A stretch of DNA of 64,000 nucleotides from a phage, in assembly GCA_038450185.1 (NCBI GenBank), contig GCA_038450185.1_4765.1; one strand, 5' to 3'. How positions within the stretch are numbered: position 1 is the first letter of the stretch; the number at the start of each line of letters is the position of its first letter. The position numbers were made by a program, and so were the translations under genes. This document shows positions 2,463 through 28,543 of the stretch, piece after piece. A model generated the notes under the pieces. That model did not search any database and had not been told where the DNA came from. It worked only from the letters and a program-made list of their open reading frames with translations.

Positions 2463-2495
2463 TTTGATTCTCCTATTTCGTTTCGTTATGTGTGT

Positions 2496-2525
2496 ATTAT
2501 AGGGGATCGGTGATCCCCTTGTCAA
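2496..2525 (-). promoter_or_regulatory. early promoter cassette (TTGACA-18-TATAAT), palindromic spacer
   Basis: Spacer contains GGGGATCACCGATCCCC. Confidence 0.55.
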
Positions 2526-2540
2526 CAACTTTTTTTAAAA

Positions 2541-2822
2541 TTATTCGTGATTAGTTTCGATGTTGTGCATTTTGCACCAGTTCAGCCAGTCGCCCAGATC
2601 TTGATAGTTGATGCTTTTATCTGCTGCCATCGTTTTTGTCTTGATACCCATATGTGCGTTATGAGTAAGCATTTTTACAGTGAACTCGATTTTATCGCCT
2701 TTAGCTTTAACATCAACCAGTTTGGTCCACTGGCTACCAGCGCCGCGAATGTTCATACCAACGATGTTTCCGATGTATGCTTCTTTGTTTTTCAGGATTT
2801 CGGTTGCTTTGATGAATTTCAT
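2541..2822 (-). CDS. hypothetical early protein
   Basis: ORF track; ATG at 2822 with GGAG RBS; promoter cassette upstream. Confidence 0.5.
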   Translation of the reverse strand: MKFIKATEILKNKEAYIGNIVGMNIRGAGSQWTKLVDVKAKGDKIEFTVKMLTHNAHMGIKTKTMAADKSINYQDLGDWLNWCKMHNIETNHE

Positions 2823-2855
2823 TTTTGGTTCTCCAGTTCGTTTCGGTATGGGTGT

Positions 2856-2884
2856 ATTATGCTATGTTCTTACTTTGGTGTCAA
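2856..2884 (-). promoter_or_regulatory. early promoter cassette (TTGACA-17-CATAAT)
   Basis: tgtcaa and attatg hexamers on plus strand at correct spacing upstream of gene starting 2822. Confidence 0.5.
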
Positions 2885-2892
2885 CAACTTTT

Positions 2893-3162
2893 TTAGATAT
2901 TTTCAGAAATAAATTTTAAAACTTGACGTAAATGTTTCTCATCTTTGATAGTCGCCGGAAGTTCTTCTTTTACTTCCTGTGCAAGATAGATATTTCCGTT
3001 CCAAGTGAAAGATCCGTCTTCGTTTACGCGATAGCTGAACATCCACTCGCAATCATTTTCGATTTCATATACACACAGAAGGGTGTAATCGTTAAAGCTA
3101 GTGATTTCAAGGTCGAAGCCGTGACGTTTTGCAAAGTTGGTAGTGGTTTTAGTCAGAGCCAT
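2893..3162 (-). CDS. hypothetical early protein
   Basis: ORF track; ATG at 3162; promoter cassette upstream. Confidence 0.5.
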   Translation of the reverse strand: MALTKTTTNFAKRHGFDLEITSFNDYTLLCVYEIENDCEWMFSYRVNEDGSFTWNGNIYLAQEVKEELPATIKDEKHLRQVLKFISENI

Positions 3163-22997: not shown

Positions 22998-23025
22998 ATT
23001 ATACACTATTGCGTTACGCTGTCAA
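22998..23025 (-). promoter_or_regulatory. early promoter (TTGACA-16-TATAAT)
   Basis: Hexamers upstream of gene starting 22966. Confidence 0.5.
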
Positions 23026-24030
23026 CTCTTTTTCAAAAGTTTTTACGATATACATGATAGTGCTCAATTCAGACGGCGCGACTGTTTCTGTGTAGCCATC
23101 CGGCATATCTTCTTTTGAGATATAGGAAGTTTTACCTTTCATCGCTTCCTTGATCTTGTTCTCTAATTCTAAGATCTTTTGACCGTCTTGTAAAGTCAAT
23201 TCATAAAAGATCTCGTGGTCGAATTTAGATTTCGCTGATTGGTTTCTCATTCGTTCTTGTGTTGTTAAATTGGTTATTCCAAATTTGATTCCATAAAAAC
23301 ATGATTTTTTAATTAGTTTTTGAATGTATAGTGTTCCGTGTTTTAAAGTGTTGTATCCAAATCTAGCACAACTTGAACATCTATTTCCTGATAGAAACCC
23401 GTTAATTGTTGGTGTAAATGTATGACCATTACAACATTGCAATTTTAATTTTGTTGTATTTCCTTTCCATTCACCTATAAATCCATTGAATAGTATGTTT
23501 TCTTTATCAAAGATTGGTTTAATTCTAATAATATAGTCATCTTTGGGTATTGATTTTAATTCTTTCAGTTTTAACCGGTAGCATTCTTGGCAGCGTCTTC
23601 CATTTTTGAAATTGTTAATTGTTGGTGTAAATGTATGTCCATTACAACATTGTAGATTTAATTTTGTCGATGACCTTTTCCATTCACCTATAAATCCATT
23701 GAATAGTATGTTTTCTTTATCAAAGATTGGAGTTAACTTATGTAGATGTTCATCTTCCGAAAAAGATTTCATCCTTCCATTCTTTATGTCTGCACATTTA
23801 TGACAGCGATTTCCAGCGTTGAAATTGTTAATTGTTATTGTAAATGTATGACCATTACAACATTGCAATTTTAATTTTGTTGTATTTCCTTTCCATTCAC
23901 CTATAAATCCAATAAACTTTATATTTTCTTTAAAGAATGTTGGTTTTAATTCTTCGTAGTAATTCACTGGAGATTTTGAATTGTGAGCTTTTCTAACCCA
24001 TTCAATCTCATGTGCTTGACGTACTAACAT
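23014..24030 (-). CDS. triple zinc-finger repeat protein with C-terminal T5orf172 / GIY-YIG-like domain
   Basis: ORF track 23014..24075 trimmed to ATG 24030 with GGAGG SD; three ~70-aa repeats each carrying QCCNGHTFT...C..C; C-terminal FYGIKFGITNLTTQERMRNQ. Confidence 0.5.
   Translation of the reverse strand: MLVRQAHEIEWVRKAHNSKSPVNYYEELKPTFFKENIKFIGFIGEWKGNTTKLKLQCCNGHTFTITINNFNAGNRCHKCADIKNGRMKSFSEDEHLHKLTPIFDKENILFNGFIGEWKRSSTKLNLQCCNGHTFTPTINNFKNGRRCQECYRLKLKELKSIPKDDYIIRIKPIFDKENILFNGFIGEWKGNTTKLKLQCCNGHTFTPTINGFLSGNRCSSCARFGYNTLKHGTLYIQKLIKKSCFYGIKFGITNLTTQERMRNQSAKSKFDHEIFYELTLQDGQKILELENKIKEAMKGKTSYISKEDMPDGYTETVAPSELSTIMYIVKTFEKELTA
23370..23935 (-). repeat. three in-frame tandem repeats of ~210 bp inside CDS 23014..24030
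   Basis: Near-identical nucleotide blocks visible three times in this span, encoding the zinc-finger units. Confidence 0.6.
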
Positions 24031-24060
24031 AATTTTATCCTCCGTTGTTTCTATGGGTGC

Positions 24061-24089
24061 ATTATACATTACCACATCAGCATGTCAAT
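24061..24089 (-). promoter_or_regulatory. early promoter (TTGACA-17-TATAAT)
   Basis: Hexamers upstream of gene starting 24030. Confidence 0.5.
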
Positions 24090-24114
24090 ACATTTTCATA
24101 AAATTTTATGCAAT

Positions 24115-24138
24115 AAAAAAGCCTCCCCGAAGGAAGGC
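24115..24138 (-). terminator. intrinsic terminator after gene 32
   Basis: GCCTCCC-cgaa-GGAAGGC hairpin preceded by AAAAAA. Confidence 0.55.
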
Positions 24139-24149
24139 TTTAAAATTCA

Positions 24150-25124
24150 TTACATCCCTAACAGAGCGTCAAGATCATCCAGATCAGAAGCGGAGGAAGT
24201 ACCGCCACCCAGGTCCAGAGATGCCATCAGGTCATCAGCGGAAGAATCTAACGCCGTGCTAGCTGCGTTAATACCAACTACAGTGCTAGCTGCGGTCATA
24301 CCAGAATCGAATGCATTCATCTGTGCGTCAAAATCGTCAAGCTGGCTGTTAATCGCTGCCGCAGCACTGGAAGCCGCAGCACCAGCTACCATAGAAACGC
24401 CCATAGTTTTCTTAAATTTGGTTTCCAGTTCATCGAACGGTTTAAACTGGCTAGGCGCTACAATCTCACTCAGATCAACCATGTTTTCCATCAGATATTT
24501 CTGATATGCTTCGTCTTCAATTTTCGGAAGCTGTGATTGCTGCATGAAACGAGAATCATCATAGTTCTGGTGTTTATCAACCTTCTTAGCTTTCAGGAGG
24601 AAGTTAGCACCGGAGAACACACAAGTTACATCGACCGGAACTTCGCCCATGTCGGTATTCACGTTCACCATTGCAACGATCTTATCATAAATTTTCTGAC
24701 CGAAGCGGAATTTGAATACCTTACCTTCATTTTCTGGTGCTTGAGGATCTTTCAGTACCAGAATATTTGCGTAGTAAGACGCTTTACGCTTAATCAGTTG
24801 CCATTCGGTTTTATCGGTATTGTACAAGTCTTTTTCGTTAATATATTTGCACACAGGGCAAGAATCAAAATCACCGTGGGTGCTAGAGCAGTTTTCCCAA
24901 TACCATTTGCCATTAACTTTGAAGGAATGGTTTACCAGTTTCACAATCGGCAGACCGTCTTCTGTCTTAGACGGCAGGAAGCGAATCAGGGCTTCACCGT
25001 TACCTGCTGCATCAGTCTTAATCTTCCACTCTTTCGGATCTTCTTTGGAGAAACCGTTGCCACCTTTCAGTGCGGCCAGTTGAGCTTGCAATTTGGAGCT
25101 ATCTTGACGACGAAACATGTTCAT
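24150..25124 (-). CDS. 32: single-stranded DNA-binding protein
   Basis: ORF track; strong similarity to recalled T4 gp32 ([36 protein letters not shown], acidic Ser/Asp-rich tail). Confidence 0.9.
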
Positions 25125-25170
25125 AATTATACCTCTTTATACATTAACTATTGATTAATTTACGTTTTAT

Positions 25171-25199
25171 ACTATATCAGATACTTAATTGCTTGTCAA
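25171..25199 (-). promoter_or_regulatory. possible promoter for gene 32 (TTGACA-17-TATAGT)
   Basis: Hexamers about 45 nt upstream of gene 32 start; overlaps 3' end of HNH gene. Confidence 0.35.
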
Positions 25200-25781
25200 T
25201 ACTTTATCAATTATATCTAACAGTTTTGGCTTTCTATTTTCAAATTCTAACATCTCTTCGGGAGAAATGTCAACTACTTCTGTTTTGTTGAAAAAGTTTG
25301 GGTCTATAGCATCAGCAACAAAGTTTCTCGCAAGTGCTGCCGCTTTCTCATGAACATATATTCCCAAATATATCAACTTCTTTCTTTCGACCTGAATATT
25401 GGCAACATATTTACCATCTCGTTTATAAAGACTAACACCGATATATTCAGACGATCGACCTTTCTGTTTACCCATATTTCTTGAGTTTTGTTGCTCGTTC
25501 GCATCTCTCAAGTTTTCAATCCGATTATCTGTTATAATTCGGTTAACATGGTCAACGTATTTTGGCATGTATCCATGATGCATAAAGAAAATTATTCTAT
25601 GCTCTTTATGATGTTTACCATCGATACACACCAATCTGTATCCATGACTAGGATTAACTCCACCAGCTCTAGATCCGACTTTATGCTTTCGGTTTGTCGA
25701 TATCTTGCAAATCAGCTTACCGTTATCATATTTAAAGAGTTCATGACAACGAGCATACAATTCAGGATCATATGTTTTCAC
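25185..25781 (-). CDS. HNH homing-endonuclease-like protein with AP2-type DNA-binding domain
   Basis: ORF track; HNH core HGYRLVCIDGKHHKEHRII...VDHVNRIITDNRIENLR and AP2-like SEYIGVSLYKRDGKYVA; apparent GTG start with GAGGT SD; inserted between 32 and 59. Confidence 0.55.
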   Translation of the reverse strand: MKTYDPELYARCHELFKYDNGKLICKISTNRKHKVGSRAGGVNPSHGYRLVCIDGKHHKEHRIIFFMHHGYMPKYVDHVNRIITDNRIENLRDANEQQNSRNMGKQKGRSSEYIGVSLYKRDGKYVANIQVERKKLIYLGIYVHEKAAALARNFVADAIDPNFFNKTEVVDISPEEMLEFENRKPKLLDIIDKVLTSN

Positions 25782-26445
25782 CTTTTAACCTCGATATTTC
25801 TTTACACTCTTTAACTACTTTAACAAATAATGCTCTTGCTTTTGCGGCGTCAATAACAAGTAGTTTCTTGTACGCCTTCATTTTAACACTATAAGTTTGC
25901 CAAATCAAGTCTTTGGCTACCTTGTCGTGTTCGTCGATTATATTTAGAAAGCTATCTAACAACATAAACGACTCAAACGATATAATCCGATTTTGCAGTA
26001 GTTTAAAAATACCGCTTGTTTCGGTTGCGGGATTATATGTAATTAGCTCTTTAAGAGTAACCCCGCGTTTCTCGGAGAAGTATACCAGACTTTTAATGTC
26101 ATCGTCAAATCTTGTTGCTGCATCGGTTATCTTTCCTATGTATTCCATATAAAAGCCGTATGCGTCAACATCAGTGATTTCACCTACCCATGCATCGGTA
26201 TTAGCTACCAGATTGCTTAGGAATAGGAAGTATAATTCTCTTAGATTGTATTTTTCCGCTAATTTCGCGAAATAATACTTATCTCTGCGTTTATTGAATG
26301 CGGCATCAGATAACCGCATCCTCCAATTATATTTTACGCAATCATAACGCCCGTTCATATGAGCTTTCATCATGCAATATAACATATACACAGATTTAGC
26401 ATTAATTCGCATATCTGGATCTGGAGGAAGACGGTTTCTGATCAT
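25768..26445 (-). CDS. 59: helicase loader
   Basis: ORF track; similarity to recalled T4 gp59 (KSVYMLYCMMKAHMNGRYD, RRDKYYFAKL, FLSNLVAN, FMLLDSFLNIID). Confidence 0.85.
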   Translation of the reverse strand: MIRNRLPPDPDMRINAKSVYMLYCMMKAHMNGRYDCVKYNWRMRLSDAAFNKRRDKYYFAKLAEKYNLRELYFLFLSNLVANTDAWVGEITDVDAYGFYMEYIGKITDAATRFDDDIKSLVYFSEKRGVTLKELITYNPATETSGIFKLLQNRIISFESFMLLDSFLNIIDEHDKVAKDLIWQTYSVKMKAYKKLLVIDAAKARALFVKVVKECKEISRLKGENI

Positions 26446-26454
26446 ACATACCCC

Positions 26455-26724
26455 TTAAATATCGAGAGTGTTGGTCGGTTCGTCGATCACTCCCTTCCTG
26501 AGTGTTCTATTTACTATACATTCTTGTGTGATCTTGTCAATAATGGACACCGGAATATACTTCTGATAGTGACCATATTCTATAGAGTTTTCCTCTACAA
26601 ACTGAGTGGTCGCTTCAAGATAAGTCAATCCCTCTTCAACAACCAGTTTTTCGATTGCAAGACCGTTTGCTGTTTTGTTCGCGGCTTTTACCGCATGTTC
26701 ATTAAGCATTGAACACCCGATCAT
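26455..26724 (-). CDS. 33: possible late-transcription accessory protein (gp33-like by position)
   Basis: ORF track; assignment by synteny between 59 and dsbA only; start uncertain (ATG 26724 or 26709). Confidence 0.3.
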   Translation of the reverse strand: MIGCSMLNEHAVKAANKTANGLAIEKLVVEEGLTYLEATTQFVEENSIEYGHYQKYIPVSIIDKITQECIVNRTLRKGVIDEPTNTLDI

Positions 26725-26982: not shown

Positions 26983-27585
26983 TTAACCCTCTTTCGTCAT
27001 TAATTGAAAACCACGTTCAGCTTTTGAAATTTCGCTAGGACTTAAATCGTCACCAACATATTCTAGCATCATTTCTCGGATAATGTCAAGTGCTTTTTCA
27101 TCACCTGATTTTAACTCGAACTCAAGTTCATAATTTGCGCTTGTGTTGATAGTATATCTACCTATTCCTGCATAATTAAATGCATCTGTGCATATTTCAA
27201 CTAAGCCTACACCAGTATCAATTGTTCTAGCTACTCTCGCTGTCATCACATAAAATTGCGGTCTAAGTTGTGTTAAATTGACACCCAGACAATCAACAAA
27301 TTCAGAAAAATCTTGATAATTACATAACACTATTTCTTCTCGGTTAAATAAACCGCTTTCGTGACTTCCATGTTTTATTAGAAATTTATTTGTCTTTTTG
27401 TCAAGACGTGCATACACTCCCTGTTTATGTAAAATATATTCTTCGTCATCATAATACGATTCTAGCTTATTATAGATTTTTCTGTCTACAATACTATAAC
27501 AATCATATAACTTAGAACATGCGTCAAAAATAGACTTAAGCCCTTTGTTTGACCTTGCATAGTATTTTAATTCAAGTTCTTTCAT
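26983..27585 (-). CDS. CYTH-like (triphosphate tunnel metalloenzyme / class IV adenylate cyclase fold) protein
   Basis: ORF track; N-terminal ELELKY (ExExK) and C-terminal YELEFELK acidic strand pattern typical of CYTH; ATG 27585 with AAGGA SD. Confidence 0.45.
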   Translation of the reverse strand: MKELELKYYARSNKGLKSIFDACSKLYDCYSIVDRKIYNKLESYYDDEEYILHKQGVYARLDKKTNKFLIKHGSHESGLFNREEIVLCNYQDFSEFVDCLGVNLTQLRPQFYVMTARVARTIDTGVGLVEICTDAFNYAGIGRYTINTSANYELEFELKSGDEKALDIIREMMLEYVGDDLSPSEISKAERGFQLMTKEG

Positions 27586-27595
27586 ATGTCAATCC

Positions 27596-28543
27596 TTAGA
27601 ACTCACCAATTTTCTGCAACATTTTAACTAACGCATTTGTTACAAAATAGTTATAAATCTTACCGCGTGGTGCTGGTTTAGATTTCTCCCATGACTCCAG
27701 GATCTGATTCTGGATATTGTCTGGGATCTCGTCAAAGTCAATCAACTGACGGTTTTCATCAAAGCGTCGTGCTTCTTCCTCTGTCATCAAAGACTTTGGA
27801 TCTTCGGCATCGAAAATTTGCTCTAACCATTTGGTTGCAATTGGTTTAGCTCGTTCTCCTTCCAGTCGTGAGATAATGAAATCACTACGGCACTTGATCG
27901 AAGCTACACCGTCTTTTGCGTCACCCTTAACACATTTTACCATAAGGTCTTTGTAAGGGCTACCATATTTGCATTTCTTCCATGCTTTCTGTACTGGCGC
28001 CCACTGTTTCACGTTTTTGTATTTGTGCAACTGTGTGTAGTCACCATCGCCGGAGTTGATTAGCACCTGGCGACCTTCTACAGAAAACTTTTTAGTTAAC
28101 ACAGCGATTATATCATCCGCTTCAACTTTGTCAACCTTAATAACGTGATAAGGCATGTTCTCTTTAAACTCTTCGGTGATCTTATTGATCGCAGCAAAGA
28201 TCATCTCCCAATCACGCGGATCTGCGTCTCGTTTTTCCTTACGGTTGCGTTTATAGTAAGGGGCGATATCACGTCGCCAGTAACCTTTGCTTGAATCAAA
28301 GGCAAGTACCGTAATTGGGTATTGCTCTTTGAATTTTGTCATATTATAACGCATGGTGTCAAGAATAAGATGACGGATCATGCCTTCACTAATAGGGTCT
28401 TCCGGTTTAAAGGTATGCGAGATAGTAGCAATCATAAGCTGCGACATATCAATCAAATGCACACCTTCCGGCAGTTTATCTTCTGGATCATCGAAGAAAT
28501 CATTAAGTGTAGCGGTAGTTTTTGTAAACGGGTTATACGTCAT
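27596..28543 (-). CDS. rnh: RNase H / 5'-3' exonuclease
   Basis: ORF track; similarity to recalled T4 RNase H (GYWRRDIAPYYKRNR, INSGDGDYTQLHKY, PPRGKIYNYF). Confidence 0.85.
   Translation of the reverse strand: MTYNPFTKTTATLNDFFDDPEDKLPEGVHLIDMSQLMIATISHTFKPEDPISEGMIRHLILDTMRYNMTKFKEQYPITVLAFDSSKGYWRRDIAPYYKRNRKEKRDADPRDWEMIFAAINKITEEFKENMPYHVIKVDKVEADDIIAVLTKKFSVEGRQVLINSGDGDYTQLHKYKNVKQWAPVQKAWKKCKYGSPYKDLMVKCVKGDAKDGVASIKCRSDFIISRLEGERAKPIATKWLEQIFDAEDPKSLMTEEEARRFDENRQLIDFDEIPDNIQNQILESWEKSKPAPRGKIYNYFVTNALVKMLQKIGEF

Follow-up and report, generated by a model that had tools for sequence, protein, structure and literature searches.

In the window, the whole analysed stretch of 64,000 nucleotides of phage DNA, an open reading frame (ORF) of 198 amino acids (25185..25781) lies between the genes for the helicase loader gp59 (25768..26445; Pfam T4_Gp59_N and T4_Gp59_C, E 4e-41 and 6e-29) and the essential single-stranded DNA-binding protein gp32 (24150..25124; Pfam gp32, E 1e-51), all three on the minus strand. 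The DNA comes from a Krischvirus genome; sequence identity over this region amounts to 99.4% with Escherichia phage vB_EcoM_Skers and to 96-99% with other RB49-like phages (Krischvirus). From the ORF list and its matches to Pfam HNH_3, Pfam AP2 and PHROG 99, the ORF is a free-standing HNH-AP2 gene of the homing-endonuclease-like type. It starts with GTG, located 11 nt ahead of the gene-59 stop codon so that both genes overlap by 14 nt, and ends with TAA, 60 nt before the start of gene 32. A Shine-Dalgarno sequence (GAGG) occurs 7 nt 5' of the GTG, and this start is also backed by homology, since related proteins begin 3-5 residues before a common ELYxR motif. The overlap with the end of gene 59 and the GTG start, both proposed in the preliminary description of this DNA, are borne out by these data.

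Two domains were recognized in the encoded protein. The nuclease core covers residues 61-101 (25479..25601, minus strand) and matches Pfam HNH_3 with an E-value of 2.2e-11 and 43.6 bits (gathering cut-off 24.8), while PHROG 99 ("HNH endonuclease") matches residues 4-168 with E 3.6e-50; judged by these sequence matches, the HNH assignment is far beyond chance. Catalytic-type residues are D77, H78, N90 and N99/N102. D77, H78, N90, N99 and N102 are conserved and stand in register with the D-H...N...N of I-HmuI in a profile alignment, and D77, H78, N86, R87, E89, N90, R92 and N102 are invariant in a family of 33 homologues. The catalytic roles of the I-HmuI residues were reportedly established by Shen and colleagues in 2004. 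On these grounds the nuclease looks catalytically competent. C-terminal to the nuclease, residues 112-153 (25323..25448, minus strand) form an AP2-type DNA-binding domain of three strands and a helix, recognized by Pfam AP2 and the family profile. The Pfam AP2 match of the single sequence over these residues has E 7e-5 and lies below the Pfam gathering score; the 33-homologue profile matches the AP2 domains of WRI1 (E 1.3e-7), TEM1 and ERF proteins, and the same profile matches the HNH homing endonuclease I-HmuI (1u3e) with E 2.4e-7. The earlier reading of an HNH core followed by an AP2 segment thus agrees with Pfam HNH_3, PHROG 99 and the family profile, and an AP2-type domain C-terminal to the HNH nuclease in one 198-residue ORF is the arrangement by which the class is recognized.

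Homologues outside the 59/32 locus are at most 49% identical to this protein and occur in unrelated contexts; no paralogue was detected by tblastn within the 64-kb window, and neither Pfam nor PHROG gave a GIY-YIG match for the ORF. A packaging-type HNH protein (terminase partner) was ruled out by the position of the gene in a replication gene cluster. Several near-identical GenBank records name the gene "putative HNH homing endonuclease" or "HNH endonuclease". The allele of E26 type is labelled "Fis family transcriptional regulator" in GenBank (E26 CDS 2523..3116; 011D4 CDS 2483..3076), which is almost certainly an automated mis-annotation.

The protein carries in addition a lineage-specific C-terminal extension (residues 166-198; 25188..25286, minus strand), delimited by homologue alignment and helix prediction. 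The 31 homologues from elsewhere are about 160 amino acids long and end a few residues past the AP2 domain; among the 33 homologues, the tail of about 33 residues is found only in the two Krischvirus alleles. It is predicted to form a single long helix (residues 174-197), and the DNA encoding it holds two promoter-like sites. A search of the phage collection gave no match for the tail and promoter DNA outside carrier loci, and no donor lineage for the HNH-AP2 element.

The first of these sites (25171..25199, minus strand; TTGACA-17-TATAGT with a TG-extended -10; 11/12 in the consensus scan) is the promoter-like site of gene 32, and the HNH-AP2 ORF reads through its -35 hexamer, which forms codons 194-195. 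Its empty-site counterpart, TTGACA-17-TATAAT, is a perfect sigma-70-type sequence and carries a promoter annotation in GEC-3S and RB49. The second site lies further inside the ORF (25244..25276, minus strand; TAGTTGACA-18-TAGAAT, also with a TG-extended -10; 11/12 in the scan). The 9-mer TAGTTGACA has eight copies in the window, all of them on the minus strand (6029, 15483, 15764, 25268, 28686, 42036, 42259 and 57725), with 0.6 copies expected; its presence inside the insert as a remnant of a target site was therefore rejected. It looks like the extended -35 element of phage early promoters, as in the PeSL motifs, an extended early-promoter motif having been described for RB49 and phi1 (Arbiol et al., 2010; PMC2839356). 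Another early-promoter-like site was found in the scan at 26540-26513. A T4-type late promoter (TATAAATA) within the insert was discarded, the only matches having one mismatch and implausible positions. No terminator-like hairpin was detected between 25100 and 25860; one occurs 3' of gene 32, at 24118-24141. An Rfam scan of 24000-26600 with E up to 1 gave nothing in the insert and no match to the gene-32 operator family, its sub-threshold matches being limited to the surroundings of the gene-32 terminator.

The neighborhood of gene 32 shows further variation. Its start differs by allele (25124 vs 25118 in the window; about 2469 in the RB49 record): in the window-type sequence, ATGAACATG, GAGG stands 7 nt ahead of the first ATG, and the RB49-type gene is annotated from a GTG (GTGAATATG) with an AAGGA that is better spaced for the downstream ATG. 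This ATG agrees with the N-terminus of T4 gp32, MFKR, and, going by the sequence, the RB49-type annotation may begin two codons too early. Directly downstream of gene 32, an ORF of 353 amino acids (23014..24075, minus strand) contains three CapR-homology repeats (Pfam PF21817, E 1e-22) and matches PHROG 681 ("endonuclease"). The same slot holds CapR-repeat proteins of 338-460 amino acids with a variable number of repeats in relatives (L002, L004, L009, L020 and L056), one protein annotated as GIY-YIG, and elsewhere only a 109-residue ORF. Gene 32 is bracketed by two variable nuclease-gene slots in Krischvirus.

The HNH-AP2 gene is found at exactly the 59/32 junction in 12 of about 59 Krischvirus records and in one metagenome contig. 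The window-type allele (about 99% amino acid identity) is present in 10 of the 12 records, and E26 and 011D4 share an allele that is 85% identical. In the other records, about 47, both flanks match as two pieces that lie about 586 bp nearer each other, with a clean empty site in RB49, Phi1, JSE, GEC-3S, ECD7 and others. A metagenome scan returned one filled site, of the window-type allele, and one empty site; a scan of IMG/VR, with a search pattern that was too degenerate, returned 32 loci of which three were from Krischvirus, all three empty. The preliminary description had interpreted the gene as a mobile insertion, had suggested comparing the junction with and without the insert, and had named presence of the gene in all relatives with no target-site signature as the outcome that would speak against it. 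What is found is a precise empty site in all 22 insert-free junctions compared, and carriers making up only the 12 of about 59 records. A free-standing gene in the same orientation as its conserved neighbors and precisely absent from some relatives is typical of the class, and the gene is dispensable, since four fifths of the close relatives do without it. A full-text literature search on Krischvirus homing endonucleases returned no article whose title or opening of the abstract dealt with the 59/32 junction.

Read on the gene-sense strand, the empty site is ...AAAGAAATATCTCAATTAAAAGCCGAAAC|AAATAGTTGACAAGTAAATTTAAATCTGTATAAT... and is the same in 22 of 22 insert-free sequences save for one codon; the gene-59 stop TGA lies inside the TTGACA hexamer of the gene-32 promoter. 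The filled site is ...AAAGAAATATCGAGGTTAAAAGGTGAAAAC-ATATGA...(HNH-AP2 gene)...AAAGTATTGACAAGCAATTAAG.... At the left junction (25779..25792, minus strand), which includes GAGG (25789-25792) and GTG (25779-25781), alignments against the empty site show six substitutions (TCTCAA to TCGAGG and GCC to GGT), and these create both the Shine-Dalgarno sequence and the GTG start of the HNH-AP2 gene. They are fixed, being present in 13/13 carriers vs 0/19 non-carriers (Fisher p 2.9e-9) and missing also from three further empty sites (0/22 in total). They also alter the end of gp59, which reads ...ISRLKGENI (225 aa) in carriers vs ...ISQLKAETNS (226 aa) in non-carriers. Within 1.5 kb to either side, no difference other than the insert and these six substitutions is fixed between the two groups. 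Neither terminal repeats nor a target duplication were found at the insert ends, which excludes a transposon-type insertion or an insertion sequence; as far as sequence can indicate, repeat-free ends are the pattern expected of repair-mediated copying. The GCC codon of the empty junction occurs as five alleles (GCC, ACC, TCC, ACA and GCA) among the 22 insert-free sequences, and the adjoining 3' end of gene 59 (25793..26008, about 215 bp) has only three singleton differences across 21 genomes; the variability of this codon could reflect target-site variation or an unconstrained protein tail.

Carriers do not form a clade in the flanking DNA: across the 3' half of gene 32 as well as over the 2 kb upstream, the nearest neighbors of each carrier are a mixture of carriers and non-carriers, and the far-left flanks of ELT4 and RB49 (26984-27940, from rnh to the 200-residue ORF) differ at 1 of 957 sites. 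Significant association with the insert spans only from 25792 (left) to 25098 (right). The right flank that travels with the window-type allele (25098..25184, minus strand) comprises a carrier-only promoter spacer, a leader resembling that of ECD7 and ELT3, and codons 1-9 of gene 32. In carriers vs non-carriers, the association amounts to 11/13 vs 0/19 at 25170-25191, 11/13 vs 4/19 at 25110-25135 and 10/13 vs 1/19 at 25098-25100, with no associated site beyond. This linked tract of about 87 bp in 10-11 of the 13 carriers is a picture that general recombination could give as well. In E26 and 011D4 the insert is joined directly to the RB49-type promoter. On the left side, the final 215 bp of gene 59 hardly vary among the genomes, which makes them uninformative on co-conversion.

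All 13 copies of the gene are intact and full length. Between the two alleles, codons 38-165 have a dS of 1.45 and a dN/dS of 0.10, and the protein is under strong purifying selection. The first 38 and the last 28 codons are nearly identical (dS 0.04 and 0.31), which makes the alleles mosaic. Mosaicism is also seen around the insert. ECD7 is 96-100% identical to RB49 in gene 59 and the upstream genes and 72-86% in gene 32, with a sharp boundary exactly at the 59/32 promoter and leader (about 25100-25200 in the window); this fits nuclease genes sitting at boundaries of genetic exchange. As its gene 59 is the RB49 allele, ECD7 is not valid as an outgroup for deciding between gain and loss. The window and Skers share a very divergent allele at about 27100..27760 (a CYTH-like ORF of 200 amino acids, 26983..27585, and the 3' end of rnh); more than 220 differences over 957 nt separate it from each of the other Krischvirus in the comparison, although the neighboring genes are 97-99% identical. 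This region looks like another locally exchanged module.

The preliminary description took genes 32 and 59 to be directly adjacent in T4 and regarded this as consistent with a mobile insertion. That premise was wrong, because in T4 the GIY-YIG gene segG lies between them, and the conclusion stands on the precise presence/absence polymorphism instead. The two genes are adjacent in T2 and in insert-free Krischvirus, and many Tequatrovirus genomes, T2 included, lack segG. The conclusion is in fact strengthened, since nucleases of two unrelated families have settled in one slot under the same regulatory arrangement. SegG (gene 32.1) and the HNH-AP2 gene share the 59/32 slot and their orientation in it; each adjoins or overlaps the 3' end of gene 59, stops some 55-60 nt short of gene 32 and is patchy among relatives, segG being present in T4 but absent from T2. 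Both are promoterless cassettes with gene-32 promoters embedded in the coding sequence; in segG these are the middle and late promoters, and promoters embedded in this way help to keep the endonuclease gene in place (Edgell et al., 2010; PMC2988022). Unlike SegG, the protein belongs to another family, and the resemblance is positional and regulatory only. The site of action probably differs too: segG is listed with insertion site 32/59 and target gene 32 (Edgell et al., 2010, Table 1), SegG cutting inside gene 32 and far from its own insertion site, and for the HNH-AP2 gene the comparison of carriers and non-carriers points to the junction itself.

AP2-HNH genes of phages, cyanobacteria and ciliates were described by Magnani et al. 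(2004), as cited by Nolan et al. (2006; PMC1524935) and Barth et al. (2023; PMC10448857), and Nolan et al. (2006) reported RB49 ORF040c and RB43 ORF027c as homing endonuclease genes of this class. The gene in the window has in common with them the N-terminal HNH_3 and C-terminal AP2 domains, a core of about 160 residues, the free-standing arrangement and the phage group; it differs from the other members in sequence (at most 49% identity), in the extra C-terminal helix of 33 residues and in its genomic site. Neither a mapped cleavage or target site nor demonstrated homing was found in the literature for any AP2-HNH member. I-HmuI of the Bacillus phage SPO1 (PDB 1u3e) is intron-encoded and has a helical (helix-turn-helix) C-terminal DNA-binding part, in contrast to the free-standing gene and AP2 domain described here. 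T4 MobA and MobE, like the gene in the window, are encoded by free-standing HNH genes within operons of essential replication and nucleotide genes, although their C-terminal DNA-binding regions differ; they nick their target and are over-inherited in crosses, and MobA, MobE and I-HmuI are all HNH nickases that home (Edgell et al., 2010). [quoted passage not shown] The IPA-HNH genes of the Vibrio phage ICP1 likewise combine HNH and AP2 and lie at genetic-exchange boundaries of related phages (Barth et al., 2023), but their HNH domains diverge too far to be recognized by the Pfam HNH_3 profile, to which the ORF conforms canonically.

Taken together, we assign a probability of roughly 0.7 to the reading that this is a free-standing AP2-HNH homing endonuclease gene that has invaded the 59/32 junction of Krischvirus. 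Endonuclease activity and homing are what we infer from the active site, the precise polymorphism, the purifying selection, the mixing of flanks and the precedents of T4 segG and of MobA, MobE and I-HmuI; AP2-HNH genes of RB49 have already been classed as homing endonuclease genes (Nolan et al., 2006; Barth et al., 2023). According to this proposal, the gene would have no promoter of its own and would be co-transcribed with gene 59, with low-level translation from the GTG that overlaps the gene-59 end. In a mixed infection, the protein would bind the insert-free junction of a relative (...ATATCTCAATTAAAAGCCGAAAC|AAATAGTTGACAAG...) through its AP2 domain and N-terminal sheet, and the HNH domain would nick or cut it, nicking being the rule for I-HmuI, MobA and MobE. 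The carrier would then serve as the template for T4-type recombination-dependent repair, which would copy the gene, in most cases together with about 90 bp of gene-32 leader. Carrier genomes lack an intact empty-site sequence, and they would be immune because the insert splits the site and the six fixed substitutions alter its left half. A clean loss of the element would be disfavored, since the -35 box of the promoter of the essential gene 32 lies within the last codons of the ORF. The empty-junction sequence is the probable target: as no other fixed difference between carriers and non-carriers occurs within 1.5 kb, the target should overlap the junction, any other nearby site being one that would also be cut in some carriers. 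The sole G+C-rich patch of the empty site, AGCCGA, is altered in carriers to AGGTGA; AP2 domains prefer G+C-rich sequence according to Magnani et al. (2004), as cited by Barth et al. (2023), and the change would fit such binding, which is suggestive only. Against homing, it can be argued that free recombination of the T4 type would give patchiness and short linkage tracts for any indel, with or without a nuclease. With about one in five genomes carrying the gene there is no sign of a sweep, and the six substitutions need not reflect target immunity, since they are required for the gene's own ribosome-binding site and start codon.

The same data can be read with the nuclease as irrelevant to spread, the gene being a cassette acquired once by an illegitimate or PeSL-type event and then passed on by ordinary homologous recombination. 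RB49 and phi1 indeed differ largely by modules swapped at early-promoter cassettes (Arbiol et al., 2010), the 59/32 junction is a sharp mosaic boundary in ECD7 vs RB49 even without the insert, and the right boundary of the insert falls in an AT-rich stretch upstream of the TTGACA -35, with a second promoter-like motif inside. The likeness to the PeSL cassettes thus extends to the same phages, to strong sigma-70-type promoters at the borders of variable modules and to a right border that is itself a PeSL-like promoter. It fails on the left, where no promoter motif occurs and the border falls within the 3' coding sequence of gene 59, so that the insert is not bracketed by two cassettes; promoter-like sites occur at the right end only (25171-25199 and 25244-25276), and a PeSL-bounded shuffling module was rejected on this basis. 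The resident promoter also lacks the G+C-rich stem-loop, and the cargo is a nuclease and not an ORFan. Strong purifying selection on a nuclease whose active site is intact would moreover be hard to explain if the protein were useless to both element and phage, and we regard passive carriage as unlikely. An ancestral Krischvirus gene lost by deletion in most lineages, or an inactive, decaying relic, is highly improbable. Presence and absence alone give no polarity, and ECD7 is not a true outgroup for gene 59; against this, 22 of 22 empty sites share the exact junction, a complete gene-59 end and an intact promoter, where independent deletions would differ, 13 of 13 copies are full length with conserved catalytic residues, and the nearest homologues outside the locus, at 49% identity or less, lie in unrelated contexts.

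A benefit to the phage would be another way to account for the dN/dS of about 0.1. In that case the protein would be a domesticated nuclease or DNA-binding protein, acting in the exclusion of competitors or modulating gene-32 transcription through its AP2 domain; the right half of the presumed site, including the gene-32 -35, is kept beside the gene in carriers, and AP2 and CapR-type homing-endonuclease domains have been repeatedly co-opted as regulators (Barth et al., 2023). Domestication is nevertheless very unlikely, since a gene that four fifths of the close relatives do without is dispensable, and excluding the markers of a competitor would work in the same way as homing and is hence not a distinct rival. 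I-TevI combines nuclease and autorepressor functions. A homing endonuclease that also regulates gene 32, and whose gene has become hard to delete and perhaps useful through being translated across an essential promoter, is improbable as well. On that view the lineage-specific C-terminal helix would be encoded by promoter DNA; the retained right half of the presumed site overlaps the -35 box, and self-binding there could tune early gene-32 transcription. The variability of the GCC codon (five alleles in 22 sites, beside about 215 bp that are otherwise invariant) would then represent an arms race over the target.

The AP2-HNH class has been known since 2004-2006, RB49 included, and the gene itself is already annotated in public records. 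The insert illustrates known principles and not a new one, and will be unsurprising to the specialist; it is experimentally tractable. The 59/32 junction has been colonized independently by the unrelated GIY-YIG SegG in T4-type phages and by HNH-AP2 in Krischvirus, where it is also a sharp boundary of genetic exchange, and in both cases the nuclease gene forms a cassette that lacks a promoter of its own and harbors that of gene 32. With an empty site, a filled site, two diverged alleles and pairs of carriers and non-carriers from the same laboratories (kvi/kaaroe, MIZ4-5/MIZ2-3-6 and Cognac/Whisky), the HNH-AP2 gene of Krischvirus is a well-delimited natural test case for a class that has been recognized by sequence for twenty years.
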